Counted from the first letter of the stretch, positions 22,761-30,845 are shown. The stretch is DNA of 64,000 nt from Minisyncoccota bacterium (GCA_041664285.1 JBAYLA010000003.1:4684-68683); one strand, 5' to 3'. Numbers and translations are program-made. Notes: generated from the letters alone by a model not told the origin.

Positions 22761-22820
22761 AAATGGTAATTTAAATAAGTTCTAGATAAAAATTTTTAAA
22801 AGGTTGGCTGTTATATATAT

Positions 22821-22893
22821 GCGCGGTTAGCTCAGTTGGTAGAGCAACCCGTTTACACCGGGAAGGTCAGGGGTTCGAGTCCCTTACCGCGCA
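22821..22893 (+). tRNA. tRNA-Val (anticodon TAC)
   Basis: GCGCGGT acceptor, GCTC-AGTTGGTA-GAGC D-arm, loop TTTACAC, T-arm AGGGG-TTCGAGT-CCCTT. Confidence 0.85.
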
Positions 22894-22932
22894 CCCTCGG
22901 CCGTAGCCCATGGGCGAGGCATGTACCATTTT

Positions 22933-23004
22933 GCCCTTGTAGTTCAATGGATAGAACGAAGCTCTTCTAAGGCTTTGATGTAGGTTCGATTCCTACCAAG
23001 GGCA
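22933..23004 (+). tRNA. tRNA-Arg (anticodon TCT)
   Basis: GCCCTTG acceptor, GTTC-AATGGATA-GAAC D-arm, stem AAGCT/GGCTT loop CTTCTAA, T-arm GTAGG-TTCGATT-CCTAC. Confidence 0.85.
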
Positions 23005-23089
23005 CAAAACTGAAAGTTTTGTGAGTCCGCAGCGCGACGGCGCGAGGAGCGGGTCGCGAAATTTTTCAGCAGAAAAATATTTGCGACCA

Positions 23090-23749
23090 ATGAAAATTAA
23101 TATTCTATATGAAGATTCTAATATTCTAGCCATAGACAAACCATCTGGAATTTTAGTGCATCCAGATAAATGGAGCAAAGAAAAAACAATTCTTGATTTA
23201 TTTATTAAAAAATATCCCAAATTAGAAATAGTGCACCGTTTAGATAAAGATACTTCTGGAGTAATGTTATTGGCTAAAAACAAAAAGACTCACGAATTTC
23301 TCAAAAGCCAATTTCAGAATAGGGATGTAAAGAAAATTTATGTGGCAATAGTATCCGGTTCCGTAAACAATGATCGTGGAGTGATCAATAAGCCAATTGG
23401 GCGAAGCCCAAAAGATTTCCGAAGGCGTCTTGCTGGCAGAGGAGCTAGAGGTGAGATGCGAGAAGCTGTTACCGAATACCGTGTCCTCAAACGTCTAAAA
23501 AATTTTACTTATCTTGAAGTTCGTCCTAAAACTGGCCGAACACATCAGATTCGCGTGCATTTAAAATATTTAAATCATCCGGTAGTTTGTGATTCTCTTT
23601 ATAATCCAGATAACCCATGCCCAAAGGGTTTAAAACGCTTAGCCCTTCATGCAAAATCAATAGAATTTAAAAATTTGAAAGGAGAAATTATTAAAGTTGA
23701 ATCATCTATACCAAAAGAGTTTAAAGAAATGGTAAATCCACACACTTAA
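23090..23749 (+). CDS. pseudouridine synthase, RluA family
   Basis: HRLDKDTSGVMLLAKN catalytic-Asp motif; start moved to ATG 23090 (track ORF begins at GTG 23021 inside GC-rich leader). Confidence 0.85.
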   Translation: MKINILYEDSNILAIDKPSGILVHPDKWSKEKTILDLFIKKYPKLEIVHRLDKDTSGVMLLAKNKKTHEFLKSQFQNRDVKKIYVAIVSGSVNNDRGVINKPIGRSPKDFRRRLAGRGARGEMREAVTEYRVLKRLKNFTYLEVRPKTGRTHQIRVHLKYLNHPVVCDSLYNPDNPCPKGLKRLALHAKSIEFKNLKGEIIKVESSIPKEFKEMVNPHT

Positions 23750-23776
23750 TTTTTTTGCTTTAAATTAAGTGTGTGG
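23738..23776. repeat. palindromic hairpin CCACACACTTAATTT / AAATTAAGTGTGTGG overlapping rluA stop (CCCCCAC-core family member / terminator)
   Basis: 15-bp perfect inverted repeat, T-rich loop. Confidence 0.5.
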
Positions 23777-23789
23777 GTAAAATAATAAG

Positions 23790-25493
23790 ATGAAAGACGA
23801 AATTAGGAATTGCCCAAACTGTCACAAAGACTTCACTATTGAGTCGGAAGATTTTAATTTTTATGAAAAAATAAAAGTGCTTGCACCAACCTGGTGTCCA
23901 GAGTGTCGAATGATTCGACGTATGGCTTGCCAGAATTGCTGGTCTTTGTTTTATAGAAATTGCGATAAATGCGGCAAACGCACACTTTCTATGTATCCAC
24001 CTTCGCAGAAAATTACTGTCTATTGTCAGCCATGTTGGTGGGCAGATGATTGGGATGGTACAGAATTTGCCATGGATTATAAGTCAGATCGTCCATTTTT
24101 GGAACAATTAAAAGAACTTTCCGAAAAAACTCCATATCCGGCTCTAGAAACAGGGTATCTAACTTTAAAAAATTGTGACTATAGTAATTCTATTGGTTAT
24201 TCTAAAAATTGCATGCTCGCAACTTGGGCGGATAATTGTGAAAATGTTTACTTTTCTTCTTTTTTAAATGGAGCTAAGGATGTATCAGATAGTTTGCGAA
24301 TTTTTAAATCCGAATTGTGTTATGAATCTATTGGGCAGCGTAAATGTTACCGTATTTTTTATTCACAGGAATGTGATGATTGTAGTGAAGTTTGGTTTTC
24401 TCGTAATTGTTATGGGTGTATGAATTGTGTAGGTTGTGTGAATTTGCGTGGTGCGTCAAATTGTATTTTTAATATTAAATATACAAAAGAAGAATACTCG
24501 AACAAATTAAAAGAATTAAAATTAGATACTCGTTCTGGGATAAATGTTTTTCAAAAAGAAATTAAAGCATTTTGGGGAAAATTTCCTTACCGTTCTTATA
24601 CGGGAGATACTTTTAACCTACATGTTACCGGAGAGTATATTTATAAATCAAAAAATTCTAAAGAAATGTATATTACCAGCCATACGAAAGATAGTAAATG
24701 GTGCCAATTTATAACCTACAAACCGGTAGAAAATTGCATGGACTATTCTGGCTGGGGCAATAACGCAGAACTTATTTATGAAGCAACAAACGTGGGAGTT
24801 AATGTAAGTAATGTGAAATTCTCAATATATTGTTTTCCTGACGTTATGAATACGGAATATTCTTTATGGTGTATATCAGCAAAAAATAATTTTGGTTGTG
24901 CTAGTTTAAAACGTAAGAATTATTGTATTTTAAATAAAGAATACTCTAAAGAATCTTTTGATAAGCTCAAGGTACAAATAATTGAAGATATGAAAAACAA
25001 TCCATACATAGATGAAAAGGGAAGAGTGTGGAAGTATGGAGAATTATTTCAACCTGGTTTTAGTAAATTTGCTTATAATAATTCTACTGCTTATAAATTT
25101 TTCCCAAAAACCAAAGAAGAAGCATTAGCCTTAGGTTATACTTGGAATGAAGAAGTGGAACAACAAAATGAGGCAACCATAGATGGGAAAGATTTACCAG
25201 AAACTATTGAGGAGGTAGACAATTCAATTCTACAAGAAATAATTTCTTGTATTTCTTGTAGAAGAAAATATAAAATTACAAGTTTGGAATTGGATCTTCT
25301 TAAAAAAATGAACTTACCCCTTCCTCAAGAATGTCTAAAATGTAGAGAAAACAAAAGATTTAAGAGAATAAATAAACCTAAACTGTACAATAGAACTTGC
25401 ATGAAATGTGGCACCGACATTTATACCCCTTATGCACCTGAAGATCCCAGAATAGTTTATTGTGTAAAATGTTACCAAGATGAATTTTTGTAA
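23790..25493 (+). CDS. cysteine-rich multi-zinc-ribbon protein, unknown family (paralog of 26490-28238)
   Basis: N-terminal CPNC...18...CPEC and C-terminal CxxC pairs preceded by FY.K.N.P.P motif; central ~15-residue Cys-containing repeats (NC../.C..C). Confidence 0.7.
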   Translation: MKDEIRNCPNCHKDFTIESEDFNFYEKIKVLAPTWCPECRMIRRMACQNCWSLFYRNCDKCGKRTLSMYPPSQKITVYCQPCWWADDWDGTEFAMDYKSDRPFLEQLKELSEKTPYPALETGYLTLKNCDYSNSIGYSKNCMLATWADNCENVYFSSFLNGAKDVSDSLRIFKSELCYESIGQRKCYRIFYSQECDDCSEVWFSRNCYGCMNCVGCVNLRGASNCIFNIKYTKEEYSNKLKELKLDTRSGINVFQKEIKAFWGKFPYRSYTGDTFNLHVTGEYIYKSKNSKEMYITSHTKDSKWCQFITYKPVENCMDYSGWGNNAELIYEATNVGVNVSNVKFSIYCFPDVMNTEYSLWCISAKNNFGCASLKRKNYCILNKEYSKESFDKLKVQIIEDMKNNPYIDEKGRVWKYGELFQPGFSKFAYNNSTAYKFFPKTKEEALALGYTWNEEVEQQNEATIDGKDLPETIEEVDNSILQEIISCISCRRKYKITSLELDLLKKMNLPLPQECLKCRENKRFKRINKPKLYNRTCMKCGTDIYTPYAPEDPRIVYCVKCYQDEFL

Positions 25494-25534
25494 AAATTGC
25501 AAAGAAAGAAGGTTTATGTTAGATTAAATCCACT

Positions 25535-25945
25535 ATGGCAGGAAATAAAATCAATAAAATAAAATTTAGTCCAGTAGATATTGAGGAACGAAAGAAGCTT
25601 AATTTCAAGGCTGGAGATACAGTTTCTGTTTCTTCAAAGATTCTAGACGAAAAAGGTAAATTTCGTTTTCAGGCTTTTGAGGGGATTGTTCTCGCGAGGA
25701 AACACGGAACGGAAGTAGGTGCTACTTTTACTGTTAGAAAAATTGCTTCAGGAGTAGGAGTGGAAAGAATTTTTCCATTATATTCTCCGATGATAGGGAA
25801 GATTGAAATAACTAAAAAGGCTCACGCTCGCAGATCCAAGCTTTACTATATTCGTACAAAAGCTATCAAAGATGTTCGCAAAAAAATGCGTTCAGTCACT
25901 AATCAAGAAGAGGCAACGGAAGCAGTAGAGAAAGTTGTCGAATAA
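25535..25945 (+). CDS. rplS: 50S ribosomal protein L19 (with C-terminal extension)
   Basis: GDTVSVSSKI...FQAFEGIVLARKHG...RKIASGVGVERIFPLYSP. Confidence 0.9.
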   Translation: MAGNKINKIKFSPVDIEERKKLNFKAGDTVSVSSKILDEKGKFRFQAFEGIVLARKHGTEVGATFTVRKIASGVGVERIFPLYSPMIGKIEITKKAHARRSKLYYIRTKAIKDVRKKMRSVTNQEEATEAVEKVVE

Positions 25946-26000
25946 ATTTTGCCCCCGATCGCCTGCTCGTAAACTCGCATCGGCGATTCCGAAACGGATT

Positions 26001-26030
26001 GGGGGCAAAGCAAAGCAGTTTGCTTTGCCC
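26001..26030 (+). terminator. hairpin GGCAAAGCAAA-gcag-TTTGCTTTGCC after rplS (putative terminator/processing site abutting tRNA-Leu)
   Basis: 11-bp perfect stem; no long T-run, so uncertain. Confidence 0.35.
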
Positions 26031-26110
26031 AGGTGGCGAAACTGGTAGACGTACTACCTTGAGGTGGTAGCGCCCGCAAGGGCATGGGAGTTCAAATCTC
26101 CCCCTGGGCA
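26027..26110 (+). tRNA. tRNA-Leu (anticodon GAG)
   Basis: GCCCAGG acceptor, stem CTACC/GGTAG loop TTGAGGT, long variable arm, T-arm GGGAG-TTCAAAT-CTCCC. Confidence 0.85.
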
Positions 26111-26120
26111 CAAATAATTT

Positions 26121-26345
26121 ATGGATATAAATATTTTTAAATTAATAGGGGCCATTGGACTTCTTTTAATTTCTGTCGGCTTGTTGTTAAAAAATAGAAA
26201 ATACGAAGATGTTCTCTATATAGTTGGTGGTTGTTGCTTAGAAATTTACAGCATTCACATCAGAGATACTATTTTTATAGTTTTGCAAATTATTTTTATC
26301 TTATTTGCTATTTATAATCTTTTGAAAATTAAAAAAATTTTCTAA
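26121..26345 (+). CDS. small membrane protein, unknown function
   Basis: 74 aa, two or three TM helices; sits between tRNA-Leu and tRNA-His. Confidence 0.45.
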   Translation: MDINIFKLIGAIGLLLISVGLLLKNRKYEDVLYIVGGCCLEIYSIHIRDTIFIVLQIIFILFAIYNLLKIKKIF

Positions 26346-26386
26346 GTAGCATTTCTATAATTTTTTTGCTATAACTTAGAACACAT

Positions 26387-26461
26387 GGTGGTTATGGTGT
26401 AGCGGTAGCACAAAAGCTTGTGGAGCTTTTAGTTCGGGTTCGACCCCCGATAACCACCCCA
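26387..26461 (+). tRNA. tRNA-His (anticodon GTG) with encoded G-1 and encoded CCA
   Basis: Extra 5' G pairing with discriminator C; stem AAAGC/GCTTT loop TTGTGGA; 3' ...TAACCAC-C-CCA. Confidence 0.85.
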
Positions 26462-26489
26462 ATATAATTCCTGTATTATCTATAATATT

Positions 26490-28238
26490 ATGGAAACACA
26501 AATTAGAAATTGCCAGAACTGTAAAAAAGATTTCACGATAGAAGCGGAAGATTTTGATTTTTACAAGAAACTAAATGTTCCTGCTCCTACATGGTGTCCA
26601 GATTGTAGATTTATACGTAAGCTCACTTTTATAAATGAACGGTCTCTGTATAAGGGAGTTTGTGGTAATTGTAAAAAATCAATAATAACAATGTACCATC
26701 CGGATATCCCTTTTCCTTCCTGGTGTATTAAATGTCACTTAAGTGATATATGGGATGCACGTGATTATGGTAGAGAATATGATTTCTCTAGAAATTTTTT
26801 CGAACAGTTTAAAGAATTAAAATATAGTATTCCACACAGGGCACTTGATCAAAATGAAAGGAACGGAGAAGGCTGTGAGTATTCTAATCTATGCTATACC
26901 AGTAAAGATGTATATTTATCTTTTGATATTATTGCCTCAGAACATATCAAATACTCGGCACATGTTTTAAAATTTAATAAAAATTGTATGGACTCTATGA
27001 TTATAAAAGCCAATGATCGAGGGTATGAGTTGGTACAAGCGAGCCGAAATTATAATTCAACTTTTTTAGTTGAAAGCGATCAATGCATAGAATCACATTT
27101 TCTTTATGATTGTTCTAATTGTGTAAATTGTTGTTTGTCCTCGAATCTTCGAAACAAAAGCAATGTTTTCAGAAATCAGCAATTATCAAAAGAAGAATAC
27201 GAAAAAGCTGTTACTACTTTAAAACTTGAAACATATTCTGGTCAACTACGAGCTAAACAAGAATTTGCAACAATAGCTAAAAATGCTATTCATAAATATG
27301 CGCATATCAAAAATTCTGTAAATGCTATAGGAGATTTTATAGAAGATTCAAAAAATTTATACCATTGTTATGGTTTTGCAAAATCTGAAAATGTTAAATA
27401 TGGTTTTTGGGCGGCGAACATAATTAAAGATTCCCAAGATGTAATAATTCTAGGAAAAGTAGAGGAATGTTATGAATTTACTATGGGGGGCAGGGGCGGA
27501 AGTCGGCTAATTTTTTCTTTTAGCTGTGGTGGTACATGTAAAGATTTGTTTTATTGTGACAGTTGCAGGGGAAGCTCGAATTGCTTTGGCTGTATTAATT
27601 TAATTAAAAAACAGTATTGTATTTTTAATAAACAATATTCCAAAGAAGAATATTTTGAATTATTGCCTAAAATTATAAAACACATGAATGATATACCTTA
27701 CATAGATGCTTCTGGGAGAAAATATACTTTTGGTGAATTTTTTCCACCAGAAATTTCACCATTTGCTTATAATGAGACCATAGCATTTGAAGAACTTCCT
27801 CTTTCTAAAGATGAGATACTTTCTCAAGGTTACAAATGGAGAGACGAAGAATCAAAAACATATATTCCAACTTTAAAAACTGAAATGATTCCAGATAGCA
27901 TCAATGATGTAGTCGACATTATTTGCAATGAAATTATAGAATGTCCAAATAAAGGCAAAGTAGAAACACGATGCACATTAGCTTTTAGAATATTACCAGA
28001 TGAATTGTCTTTTTATCGGCAAATGAATTTACCTATTCCGAGATATTGTCCAAATTGTAGATATCATCAACGTTTAATTTGGAAAAATCCTTTCCATTTT
28101 TATAAACGACAATGCATGTGTGAATTATCAAATCATAATCATAATGAAAAATGCCAAATAGAATTTGAAACAATGTATTCACCAGATCGTCCTGAGATAA
28201 TTTATTGTAAGCAATGTTACCAGCAAGAAGTTTATTAA
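26490..28238 (+). CDS. cysteine-rich multi-zinc-ribbon protein, unknown family (paralog of 23790-25493)
   Basis: Same architecture and motifs (CQNC...CPDC; FYRQMNLPIPRYCPNCR; CKQCYQ at C-terminus). Confidence 0.7.
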   Translation: METQIRNCQNCKKDFTIEAEDFDFYKKLNVPAPTWCPDCRFIRKLTFINERSLYKGVCGNCKKSIITMYHPDIPFPSWCIKCHLSDIWDARDYGREYDFSRNFFEQFKELKYSIPHRALDQNERNGEGCEYSNLCYTSKDVYLSFDIIASEHIKYSAHVLKFNKNCMDSMIIKANDRGYELVQASRNYNSTFLVESDQCIESHFLYDCSNCVNCCLSSNLRNKSNVFRNQQLSKEEYEKAVTTLKLETYSGQLRAKQEFATIAKNAIHKYAHIKNSVNAIGDFIEDSKNLYHCYGFAKSENVKYGFWAANIIKDSQDVIILGKVEECYEFTMGGRGGSRLIFSFSCGGTCKDLFYCDSCRGSSNCFGCINLIKKQYCIFNKQYSKEEYFELLPKIIKHMNDIPYIDASGRKYTFGEFFPPEISPFAYNETIAFEELPLSKDEILSQGYKWRDEESKTYIPTLKTEMIPDSINDVVDIICNEIIECPNKGKVETRCTLAFRILPDELSFYRQMNLPIPRYCPNCRYHQRLIWKNPFHFYKRQCMCELSNHNHNEKCQIEFETMYSPDRPEIIYCKQCYQQEVY

Positions 28239-28296: not shown

Positions 28297-30845
28297 ATGG
28301 AGAAAGTTGAAAACATTCCAGGTCTTTCTCAAGTAGAGGCCGAAAAAATTTTAAAAATTGACGGTTTTAATGAATTACCCTCTCAGAAAAAACAGAGTGG
28401 TTTTTTTATTTTACTGAAAGTGTTGTCTGAGCCAATGCTTGTTTTGTTGCTTGGAGCTGGAGCAATCTATTTATTCTTAGGAGAAGCGAAAGATGCACTG
28501 ATGCTTCTGTCTTTTGTGTTCGTGGTTGTTGGTATCACATTTTATCAAGAAAGAAAAACAGAAAAAACACTTGAAGCCTTGCGTGATTTATCGAGTCCTA
28601 GAGCTTTGGTTATTAGAGATGGAGAGCAGAAAAGAATTGCAGGAAGGGAAGTTGTTAAAGGAGATATCATTATTGTTCATGAGGGGGATAGAATACCGGC
28701 TGATGCAGTTGTTCTTTCTTGTGAAAATCTTTCAGTGGATGAATCACTTTTAACAGGAGAATCAATGCCAGTTAGAAAAATGGAATGGGATGAAAAGATA
28801 ATAAAACAAAAACCAGGGGGGATGATTTACCTTTTGTTTATTCTGGGACAATGGTAGTAAATGGTCGAGGGATAGTGCAAGTAAATTTTACTGGTCTTAA
28901 TACTGAAATTGGTAAAATTGGCAGAAGTTTAGAAAATATCAAAGAAGAAGATACGCTTTTAAAGAAAGAAACAAAAAAAATTGTTCAATCAGTAGCTATT
29001 GTTGGGGTAATCCTTTGTTTACTTGTTGTTATATTTTACACGGTTGTTAAAGGTAGTTTAATTAATGGATTTTTGGCTGGAATAACATTAAGCATGGCAA
29101 TGCTCCCAGAGGAATTTCCAGTGGTACTTTTGATATTTTTAACTTTAGGTGCATGGAGAATTTCAAAAAGAAAAGTTCTTACTAGGCGACCTGCTGCTAT
29201 TGAGACATTAGGAGCAGCAACTGTTCTTTGTACAGACAAAACTGGAACACTTACATTAAATAAAATGGAATTAAGTAGTTTATACGCCAATGGTTCTTTT
29301 TGTGAAATTAAGGATCTAACTTTTAACAAACTTTTAGAAAAATTTGAAATTCTTTTGGAATTTGGAATTTTAGCTAGTAGAAAAGACCCATTTGATCCGA
29401 TTGAAAAAGAATTGAACAAAATTGGTAATTTATATCTTAAAAAAATAAAAGAAACTTATCATAATTACGATTTAGTAAGAGAGTATTCTTTGTCAAAAAA
29501 ACTTCTAGCCTTATCACATGTTTGGCAATCGAAAGATAAGAAAAATTTTATTCTTGCCTCTAAAGGAGCACCCGAAGCAATTTTAAAATTATGCAATTCA
29601 AGTGATGAGGAAAAGGAAAAAATTTTACAAAAAGTAAAAGAAATGTCTAAAAAGGGATTGCGGGTACTAGGGGTTGCTCGGGGAATATTTACGAGAGACG
29701 TTTTACCTGACCAACAACATGAATTTGATTTCGAATTTGTTGGTCTGCTTGGTTTTATTGATCCAGTACGAGCCACAGTTCCTAACGCTGTAAGAGAAGC
29801 TTATGATGCTGGAATAAAAGTAATTGTAATTACAGGAGATTACCCTGGTACGGCTCAATTTATAGCTAAAGAAATTGGAATAAAAAATATTGAAGAATAT
29901 TTAACAGGAGAAGATTTAGAAAAGATGGATCATTTAAAACTTCGAGAGAAAATAAAGACCATAAATATTTTTGCTAGAGTTGCACCAGAACAAAAATTAC
30001 TTATTGTAAACGCATTAAAAGCAAATGGTGAAATTGTTGCGATGACGGGTGATGGAGTAAATGATGCCCCAGCATTAAAGTCAGCTCATATTGGAGTTGC
30101 TATGGGAGAAAGAGGAACAGATGTGGCTCGAGAAGCTTCTTCCTTGGTTTTACTTAACGACGACTTTTCTTCAATTGTTGTCGCTGTTCGCTTGGGGCGA
30201 AGAATTTATAACAACTTAAAGAGGGCAATGGGATATATTTTAGCTGTACATGTTCCAATTGCCGGGATGTCTATTCTGCCTTTGTTTTTTAATATGCCGG
30301 TCGTATTGCTTCCAGCTCATATTGCTTTTTTAGAATTAATTATTGATCCTGCTTGCTCGACGGTTTTTGAAGCGGAAAAAGAAGATGAAAATATAATGAA
30401 AAGACCACCGAGGAACCTTCATCAGCGGATGTTTAATTTAAAAACAGTATCAATTAGTATGATGCAAGGGCTTGGTGTTTTGATAGCGACATTTGTTCTA
30501 TTTATTTTTGCCGTTAAGACGGGCAGGACTGAAATTGAAGCTCGATCAATTGCCTTTGTGGCATTAGTTTTGGGAAACTTAATGCTTATTGTTATTAACT
30601 TGTCATGGAGTAAAAATATTTTTAAAACCCTTAGATCTGCCAATAAAATATTCTATATGGTTTTCTTTGGAGCATTGTTGTGTTTAATGGCAGTATTATA
30701 TATACCGTTTTTTGCCAATCTTTTTCATTTAGGCCCACTAAATTATAAAGATTTTATTCTTGTAACTGCCGCTGTTTTATTAAGCTTAGCTTGGTTTGAA
30801 ATATTGAAATTATTTAAAAATAAAAATGAAATAAAATTTACTTGA
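28297..30845 (+). pseudogene. P-type cation-transporting ATPase (type II, Ca2+/Mg2+-like), interrupted by a frameshift in a G6 run at 28816-28821
   Basis: Two ORFs 28297-28857 and 28851-30845 in different frames; together give TGES, DKTGTLT, GDGVNDAPALK motifs and 8-10 TMs; inserting one G joins them (KPGGDDLPFVYSGTMVVNG). Confidence 0.75.

Follow-up and report, generated by a model that had tools for sequence, protein, structure and literature searches.

What are the two large, cysteine-rich proteins encoded on either side of rplS and two tRNA genes in a 64,000-nucleotide stretch of a Minisyncoccota bacterium genome (GCA_041664285.1 JBAYLA010000003.1:4684-68683; the whole stretch is called the window here), and how do they come to lie there as a pair? 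The products of the two genes, termed A and B (Table 1), are identical to the NCBI ‘hypothetical proteins’ WCW93_01855 and WCW93_01880, respectively, of a Candidatus Paceibacterota metagenome-assembled genome (MAG). Sequence comparisons indicate that A and B are ancient paralogues with one architecture, in which two pairs of putative zinc fingers enclose a core of ~400 amino acids (aa) predicted to fold into narrow beta-solenoids. As a tentative reading, we propose that they are specialised paralogues in a family of cytoplasmic, zinc-stabilised, non-enzymatic adaptors or scaffolds.

Both open reading frames (ORFs) are on the plus strand and their products align end to end by BLASTP (35% identity, E = 1e-109), in agreement with an initial sequence-only reading of the locus that had described two paralogous ORFs of shared architecture flanking rplS, tRNA-Leu, a tiny membrane protein and tRNA-His; all four of these were located between A and B. 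No third family member was found in the window. The domain order is [ZF1-ZF2]-solenoid 1-helices-solenoid 2-conserved segment-[ZF3-ZF4], where ZF denotes a zinc finger, and the two finger pairs make up ~170 of 570 residues. Each protein contains 35-36 cysteines (6% of residues); most of the central ones differ between A and B, and those outside the fingers are mostly poorly conserved.

Sixteen invariant or near-invariant cysteines, identified in an alignment of 25 A- and B-type proteins, form four CxxC...CxxC sites (Table 1; residue numbers refer to A unless stated). Across 621 non-redundant members each quartet is kept or lost as a unit (co-loss r = 0.92 for C11-C39, 0.95-1.0 among C61/C79/C82, 0.96 for C490-C518 and 0.73-0.76 for C540 with C558/C561), so the assignment of the four Cys4 sites as zinc ligand sets is supported beyond chance, and A and B would be expected to bind zinc. 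The finger pairs at the N-terminus (residues 3-86) and the C-terminus (482-565) are homologous to each other (hhalign, 99.8% probability, E = 4e-28), a FY..MNLP.P..C..CR module recurs near the C-terminus, and the proteins end in CVKCYQDEFL (A) and CKQCYQQEVY (B), all as the sequence-only reading had seen. Its N-terminal CxxC-x18-CxxC ribbon, with a PxPxWCPxCR motif following, survives only in part: the multi-zinc-finger character and the repeated terminal module stand, but there are four fingers with spacers of x24 or x17, and the motif (F.FY.K...P.P..CP.CR) sits inside ZF1, between its two knuckles, where the finger helix reads F.FY.K..VP.PT.CP.CR..RR. The x17 spacing is found in ZF2 and ZF4 of A, in ZF2 of B and in the second half of B ZF4. 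The first knuckles of B ZF3 and ZF4 are expanded (C485-x9-C495 and C542/C544-x10-C555, in B numbering), with extra His residues in the ZF4 insert. R40 and R519, each directly after a second knuckle, are 95-99% conserved, including in members without the cysteines.

ZF4 is the sole part of A to reach a Pfam cut-off (PF23477, zf_Tbcl_2; 27.4 bits, cut-off 27). This model is matched by 12 of 25 members; B has no match because its ZF4 knuckle is expanded. A remains below the cut-off of TIGR04272 (24.2 bits, cut-off 36), as do both A and B for PF13451, zf_Tbcl (16.5 bits each, cut-off 24; best member E = 0.0017), for which some distant homologues have a precomputed match. All three models, of which TIGR04272 is named ‘CxxC-x17-CxxC domain’, describe probable treble-clef fingers and are themselves families of unknown function. 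ZF1 and ZF3 carry the PF13451 signature (CxxC...FY..K...P..C..CR) and ZF2 and ZF4 the CxxC-x17-CxxC arrangement of PF23477 and TIGR04272; the difference is that PF13451 and PF23477 cover small stand-alone or tandem fingers, whereas here finger pairs flank a large unassigned core. Zinc binding by fingers of the CxxC-x17-CxxC type is known from small Methanosarcina mazei proteins (PMC12704099). The C-terminal zinc module of LIM domains (CRP1/CRP2/MLP; PDB 1CTL, 1IBI, 1B8T) resembles ZF2 and ZF4 in spacing (C..C-x17-C..CY) and sequence, with borderline scores (finger-pair profile, E = 0.007-0.04; Pfam LIM, E = 0.035 in 2 of 25 members). However, LIM domains join contiguous C2HC and C4 modules with 2 residues between them, whereas ZF1 and ZF2 are of two types and 18 residues apart, and ZF1, with its x24 spacer and no His ligand, does not conform to LIM (PF00412). 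The only BFVD matches were phage ‘zinc-ribbon domain’ proteins, which superpose on one finger (root-mean-square deviation 0.8 Å over 41-44 residues); the core had no match there.

The core is itself a duplication, with residues 133-243 homologous to residues 282-395 (hhalign, 99.9% probability, E = 2.8e-36). The sequence-only reading had divided the central region into ~15-residue units, each with a cysteine; autocorrelation instead gives a repeat of 12 residues (peaks at lags 12, 36, 18, 24, 30 and 6), and the cysteine positions vary between A and B. Within the repeat, Lys and Glu alternate at position 1 (K/E/K/E), an aromatic residue stands at position 5, and positions 3, 6, 9 and 12 are taken by small residues (Cys/Ser). 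Both solenoids close with the motif nCfGCvNLRnK-sYCiFN-qYsKEEY (C.nCfGCvNLRnK-sYciFN.qYsKEEY in solenoid 1 of A), followed by a helix. AlphaFold2 modelled full-length A with a mean local confidence (pLDDT) of 76.9 and a global score (pTM) of 0.79, and the core alone (145-sequence alignment) with 80.4 and 0.84; the core model has 4-residue strands every 6 residues over residues ~125-225 (pLDDT 81-95). Together, periodicity and model point to narrow beta-solenoids (beta-helix).

By sequence entropy, ZF1, both solenoid caps, residues 403-442 and ZF4 are the most constant parts, and the solenoid bodies and the linker between them vary most. Conserved positions include C210 (93%), C213 (97%), C370 (97%) and N382 (100%) in the core (Cys values from the 621 sequences) and G417 (99%), Y429 (97%), N430 (96%) and W452 (94%) in the post-solenoid segment. 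Conserved core residues recur as mirrored pairs in the two halves (K139/K288, D167/D318, Y178/Y330, C216/C370, N228/N382), and since nearly all of them are paired in this way they appear to be fold determinants rather than parts of a single active site. No signal peptide or transmembrane (TM) segment was found in the family (164 members, one of them with a hydrophobic stretch of borderline strength), so the protein is predicted to be cytoplasmic, a setting in which the core cysteines would more likely serve as thiols or metal ligands than form disulfides.

No model was found that covers the core, in keeping with the sequence-only reading, which did not recognise the family: Pfam (searched with 35 diverse members) and NCBIfam gave no match, a PDB search by sequence or profile (25-sequence profile) gave only weak matches to the fingers, and the PADLOC and PHROGs models did not match A, B or the divergent member P0370 (see below). 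A defence or phage origin was rejected on the lack of PADLOC/PHROG matches and a single weak, finger-only tblastn match in 50,697 phage records. Foldseek against the PDB returned nothing for the core under E = 0.06, and its weak matches are all parallel beta-helices (LpxD, PglD, tailspikes, pectate lyase, AlgE4, NosD, TBCC/RP2 and the Tenebrio antifreeze protein). With the left-handed hexapeptide acyltransferases (LpxD, PglD, DapD) and the right-handed helices of pectate lyases and tailspikes the core shares only the fold class and a period that is a multiple of 6; their coils have 18-25 residues rather than 12, the catalytic residues are not in common, there are no Hexapep or Pectate_lyase Pfam matches, and Foldseek E-values to hexapeptide proteins are 3.7-9.6.

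The likeness is closer to the Tenebrio molitor antifreeze protein (TmAFP), a right-handed beta-helix with 12-residue coils of the pattern TCTxSxxCxxAx. TmAFP (PDB 1L1I) shares with the core the period of 12 and the small residues at every third position, and the Foldseek comparison is not significant (TM-score 0.41, target-normalised; E = 1.5). The core differs in having no Thr-x-Thr ice-binding face and no signal peptide, and in forming two capped solenoids inside a zinc-finger protein. A cytoplasmic beta-helix of 12 residues per coil, lined with Cys/Ser, as predicted here, would be unusual, as the known example of this geometry, an antifreeze protein, is secreted and disulfide-bonded. Neither the treble-clef finger nor the beta-solenoid class is new in itself, and the fold in A and B is a prediction. 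No published description of the family was found in literature on the family, its Pfam identifiers or Parcubacteria zinc-ribbon or cysteine-rich families. Méheust et al. (2019) characterised Parcubacteria-enriched families as ‘primarily hypothetical proteins’.

The family is large. Word-indexed searches returned >4,100 relatives of A and >5,500 of B, and an exhaustive profile search gave 4,935 clusters at 50% identity (E ≤ 1e-3; 2,064 of them at E ≤ 1e-30), nearly all full length at 550-600 aa. Hosts among species-representative genomes are Nomura-, Jorgensen-, Giovannoni-, Staskawicz-, Lipton- and Sungbacteria and Paceibacterota (Parcubacteria group), and a search seeded with a divergent member added Gracilibacteria and Peregrinibacteria. 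Restriction to Patescibacteria, raised as a check in the sequence-only reading, thus describes the family largely, but perhaps not strictly, given a divergent branch with N-terminal GNAT fusions. The GNAT fusion is recurrent (nine clusters of 725-734 aa: P0370 and P0389-P0396; e.g., L084 8001-10196), and one of these clusters is labelled Bdellovibrionales. A single fusion of an IMPase/CysQ/HisN-family domain onto the family body was also found (P0403; L088 3687-6185). Several finger cysteines are replaced in both kinds of fusion protein. Subtypes are many, and some wholly lack ZF2 or ZF3. The contigs bearing GNAT and IMPase fusions look foreign to the candidate phyla radiation (CPR), those with GNAT fusions carrying Ser/Thr kinases, DsbD and similar genes. 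On a 1.39-Mb contig (L086 1-17674), a 557-aa family gene is accompanied by four neighbours of 550-579 aa without Pfam matches, with TrmB-type regulator genes interspersed; these neighbours could belong to the family too, in a genome of Gracilibacteria/Peregrinibacteria type.

The divergent (P0370) branch bears on whether A and B could be enzymes. Its fingers decay, with complete cysteine sets in 51% (ZF1), 0% (ZF2), 36% (ZF3) and 69% (ZF4) of sequences, while its core stays, C207/C210/C213 being complete in 92% and C370 present in 97%. Together with the high conservation of C210, C213 and C370 across the 621 sequences, this would suit the main rival to our reading, unlikely as we consider it, namely a metallo-enzyme or redox protein in which CxxCxxC in the final coil of solenoid 1 (C207/C210/C213, with or without C216) and C370/C379 form a catalytic fifth metal centre (Zn, Fe or [4Fe-4S]) acting on RNA, DNA or nucleotides, with the fingers positioning the substrate. 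Family neighbours such as RluA, SpoU, RuvX, UvrABC, Fpg, GuaB/GuaA and a cytidylyltransferase would also be in keeping with such substrates. However, no Fer4, radical-SAM or other catalytic family was matched, and the CxxCxxCxxC of the core (C207/210/213/216) shows no co-loss signal of a fifth quartet (r ≤ 0.55 in 621 members), residues this near to invariant giving the test no power. The core cysteines also lie on the inward ladder of every third residue and so may be mere packing residues, and the remaining conserved residues are symmetric between the solenoid halves.

The abundance of cysteines, and NRAMP and CutA genes that adjoin some arrays of family genes, could instead suggest a multi-copy store or buffer that sequesters zinc or iron in very small cells. 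We regard this as very improbable: the poor conservation of most non-finger cysteines does not fit it, an ordered and conserved 570-aa architecture with subtype orthology is unlike metallothionein-type proteins, and some subtypes lose whole fingers yet keep the protein.

How the family genes are arranged was examined in 83 family-centred loci with 178 family ORFs: 32 loci have one, 26 two, 11 three, 11 four, one five and two six. Where there are several, they are nearly always adjacent and on one strand, the usual form being a tandem array of 2-6; tblastn spans of 2.0-2.3 kb, considered as inteins or insertions, proved to be adjacent paralogues. Single MAGs hold at least seven (JTS-AC38; L012, L034, L037) and at least six copies (CAZKRG01). 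A and B belong each to an orthologue group of its own (60-83% identity, with B orthologues reaching down to 50%). The order RluA-A-rplS was found in 9 loci, within a conserved block of tRNA-Val(tac), tRNA-Arg(tct), RluA, an A-type gene, rplS, tRNA-Leu(gag) and sometimes then tRNA-His, seen in Paceibacteria in the window (22820-26461) and in L001, L004, L007, L008, L010, L013 and L066; the position of tRNA-His relative to the P-type ATPase gene varies among genomes. Between the same genome pairs A is 53-72% conserved, close to RluA (56-73%), and A lies somewhat below L19.

B is placed differently. Its orthologues in two other genomes (71-77% identical) lie in the order uvrB-uvrA-uvrC-B-SpoU...fpg-ruvA-rpsT, and a more distant B-like gene forms part of a tandem pair between ruvX and a gene for a tRNA-binding domain. 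Because B orthologues elsewhere sit after uvrC, the bracketing of rplS and the tRNAs by A and B is lineage-specific, and a hotspot is not supported. The sequence-only reading had taken the arrangement for a segmental duplication or a conserved hotspot, as same-strand paralogues within 4.5 kb and flanking tRNA genes might suggest. A recent segmental duplication or insertion hotspot at the rplS/tRNA cluster is, however, already contradicted and scarcely credible, given the identity of only 35%, the separate orthologue groups, the position of B elsewhere, RluA-A-rplS without B in L001 and the lack of tRNA enrichment. A more general link to tRNA genes was likewise rejected: they are confined to the rplS synteny block, most arrays have none, and there is no general enrichment. 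A link to ribosome biogenesis or tRNA modification was also discarded, because its context (IscS-like, MnmA, MiaB-like, RNase III, Der, GNAT-family) did not recur in three further members from outside Paceibacteria.

Most often, at 24 of the 83 loci, family genes have as a neighbour a P-loop ATPase matching TrwB_AAD_bind, TraG-D_C, T4SS-DNA_transf and HerA/DUF87 models (among them PF10412, PF12696 and PF02534). It occurs in a short (~500 aa) and a long form (600-770 aa), and every long form has a CxxC-x17-CxxC finger (C.NCGK.T.VPF.P..GRPVYCK.C; PF23477, 48.7 bits) after the nucleoside triphosphatase (NTPase) domain. In a reverse test with 80 ATPase-centred metagenome loci, counted on contigs ≥10 kb, family genes lie beside close ATPase relatives (≥65% identity) at 12 of 16 loci and beside distant ones (≤55% identity) at 5 of 27. 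The recurrent arrangement is a cassette of DnaK, ATPase-long, 1-3 family genes, ATPase-short, DnaJ and a ~195-aa membrane protein, with gaps of 0-100 nt and with a cysteinyl-tRNA synthetase (CysRS) gene on the opposite strand. A 598-aa gene in the L094 cassette was rejected as a family member (no match to the family hidden Markov model even at E = 10); by eye it resembles an ABC transporter, having Walker A and ABC-signature motifs as well as hydrophobic segments.

The NTPase domain of these neighbours, which are not to be confused with A and B, is like that of type IV coupling proteins (T4CPs; VirD4/TrwB/TraD). Because 30 of the 32 ATPases have no TM-like segment that could serve as an anchor, they are not canonical coupling proteins, and they further differ in that a long/short pair, the long form with its finger, brackets family genes between dnaK and dnaJ. 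For Patescibacteria, 5,713 T4CP homologues are reported, just 148 of which are near virB4, and exaptation has been proposed (PMC12102498); the lack of an anchor in the ATPases is in keeping with that report.

Family proteins could on this evidence be clients, substrate receptors or co-chaperones of the paired VirD4/HerA-like ATPases and DnaK/DnaJ, in protein quality control or in signal-peptide-free export towards a host. The recurring cassette, the distance of most T4CP homologues from virB4 and a LIM-like finger that points to protein-protein contacts would all agree with such a role. We nonetheless think it improbable, since ATPases without an anchor would not sit at a secretion channel as canonical coupling proteins do, the conservation of family proteins is at a housekeeping level and unlike that of effectors, A, B and many other members are not beside ATPases, and one locus (L097) has the cassette frame without a family gene.

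We return to A and B as non-enzymatic adaptors or scaffolds. The mirrored core residues, the constancy of some modules against variable solenoid bodies and linker, the persistence of R40/R519 and the enzyme-domain fusions argue that the family is probably a non-catalytic platform; GNAT and IMPase-family fusions onto the same body are as expected for one. In line with this reading, family genes and ATPases are found together whether loci are centred on the one or the other, and each paralogue shows conservation of a housekeeping kind. The constant modules (fingers, solenoid caps and post-solenoid segment) would dock onto a common partner or ligand class, most likely nucleic acid or the soluble VirD4/HerA-type ATPases that bear the same finger, while the variable solenoid faces would make the client specific to each paralogue. 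Certain paralogues may, in many Paceibacteria, work in a cassette with the two ATPases inserted between dnaK and dnaJ, and A and B would be ‘stand-alone’ subtypes, with neighbourhoods of RNA maturation (RluA/rplS) and, for B in other genomes, of DNA repair (uvrABC).

Several observations weigh against this reading. No VirD4/HerA-like ATPase is encoded in the window. The isoelectric points (pI) are near neutral (7.9 for A, 6.6 for B), and that of the N-terminal finger pair of A is acidic (5.8), which is atypical of nucleic-acid binders; among solved structures the LIM C-terminal module (E = 0.007), a protein-protein module, comes closest to the x17 finger. Information-processing genes prevail in the gene neighbourhoods of these reduced genomes in any case, and for members outside Paceibacteria the context is not conserved. 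Solenoid 2 is modelled at a pLDDT of only 64-75, and the near-invariant C207/C210/C213 and C370, which outlast the fingers in one branch, may belong to a metal site with a catalytic or redox role.

A bolder version, which we consider doubtful, is that interchangeable finger-solenoid adaptors deliver nucleic-acid or protein clients to an exapted pair of soluble VirD4/HerA-type ATPases in concert with DnaK/DnaJ, their beta-helices held by internal thiol or metal ladders and not by a hydrophobic core, as an undescribed cytoplasmic machine central to Paceibacteria. If true, this would explain the role of thousands of ‘orphan’ coupling-protein homologues in Patescibacteria. What probability remains after the readings weighed here belongs to something else.

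The genomes of Paceibacteria and other Patescibacteria, at roughly 0.6-1.4 Mb, have shed most of metabolism. At least one such reduced genome keeps seven or more copies of a 1.7-kb gene, at least 12 kb in all, and the subtypes are each about as conserved as a pseudouridine synthase. With ~5,000 clusters at 50% identity and 70% of the length without a domain model or structural relative, the family is one of the larger blind spots in the radiation. The dnaK-dnaJ cassette with its paired soluble ATPases offers a testable lead on a question of 2025, the role of the ~5,700 coupling-protein homologues of Patescibacteria outside type IV secretion systems (T4SS).

Table 1. Genes A and B, their predicted domains and associated features. 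Positions are those of the window unless a locus from another genome is named.
Feature	Position	Strand	Basis or remark
Gene A, family member, 567 aa	23790..25493	+	ORF; subtype sited between RluA-type pseudouridine synthase gene and rplS
A ZF1 (C8, C11, C36, C39), CxxC-x24-CxxC, treble-clef-type	23811..23906	+	Cys 96-99% conserved; co-loss r 0.5-0.92
A ZF2 (C58, C61, C79, C82), CxxC-x17-CxxC	23961..24035	+	Missing in ~half of family subtypes
A solenoid 1, residues 127-236, predicted ~eight 12-residue coils	24168..24497	+	Periodicity, register, AlphaFold2 core model
A basic helical linker, residues 237-280, most variable segment	24498..24629	+	Helices 233-262; pI 9.6; top entropy
A solenoid 2, residues 281-390, predicted duplicate of solenoid 1	24630..24959	+	hhalign; cap FGCvgLrkK.YCILNKQYsKEEY
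A conserved post-solenoid segment, residues 404-480, YGEFFP...SPFAYNE(T/S)...GY.W, acidic (pI 4.5)	24999..25229	+	
A ZF3 (C487, C490, C515, C518), x24 spacer, ZF1 copy	25248..25343	+	hhalign; co-loss
A ZF4 (C537, C540, C558, C561), CxxC-x17-CxxC	25398..25472	+	Cys 99-100% conserved; PF23477 match
Gene B, second family member, 582 aa	26490..28238	+	ORF; different, ancient subtype
B ZF1 (C8, C11, C36, C39) and ZF2 (C58, C61, C79, C82)	26511..26735	+	
B ZF3 (C485, C495, C520, C523) and ZF4 (C542/C544, C555, C573, C576)	27942..28217	+	
RluA-type pseudouridine synthase gene, conserved 5' of A-type genes	23021..23749	+	PF00849, E 6.8e-35; synteny, 9 loci
A-B interval: rplS, GC-rich structured spacer, tRNA-Leu(gag), 74-aa membrane ORF, tRNA-His	25535..26461	+	
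rplS	25535-25945	+	Ribosomal_L19, E 1.7e-31
tRNA-Leu(gag)	26027-26111		
74-aa hydrophobic ORF (two-TM)	26121-26345	+	
tRNA-His	26388-26461		
Long-form ATPases with finger	L048 216-2516; L031 6779-9031; L075 3727-5970; L070 3816-5999; others		
DnaK/DnaJ cassette loci	L094 324-9512; L096 4089-9536; L098 1728-9102; L111 1687-9530; also L070, L075		

In the window, A is preceded by tRNA-Val, tRNA-Arg and the RluA-type gene, and B is followed by a P-type ATPase gene. The latter, a cation ATPase, is present as two overlapping plus-strand ORFs (28297-28857, 186 aa; 28851-30845, 664 aa), and the syntenic gene in L001 encodes a single 883-aa product, which suggests that the gene is frameshifted or a pseudogene, or that the sequence contains an error. 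A GC-rich nested hairpin element (25948-26028, plus strand) lies after the rplS stop codon and before tRNA-Leu. Its minimum free energy (MFE) as RNA is -39.2 kcal/mol (z = -4.5 relative to shuffles), and Rfam gave no match; a role as terminator or processing signal is conceivable, as is an unknown RNA.

A homologue of the 74-aa ORF (46% identity, E = 4e-15) lies directly 3' of a B-like gene in two other loci (L002 9748-9966; L003 6778-6996) and none is found beside the B orthologues in L092 and L093, so a linkage of this ORF to B-like genes is possible and weakly supported. As listed, the RluA ORF opens with a GTG only 16 nt past tRNA-Arg. Arg and Ser abound in its 43 N-terminal residues, and the Pfam domain is matched from residue 34 onwards; translation probably starts at an internal ATG (MKINILYED...).

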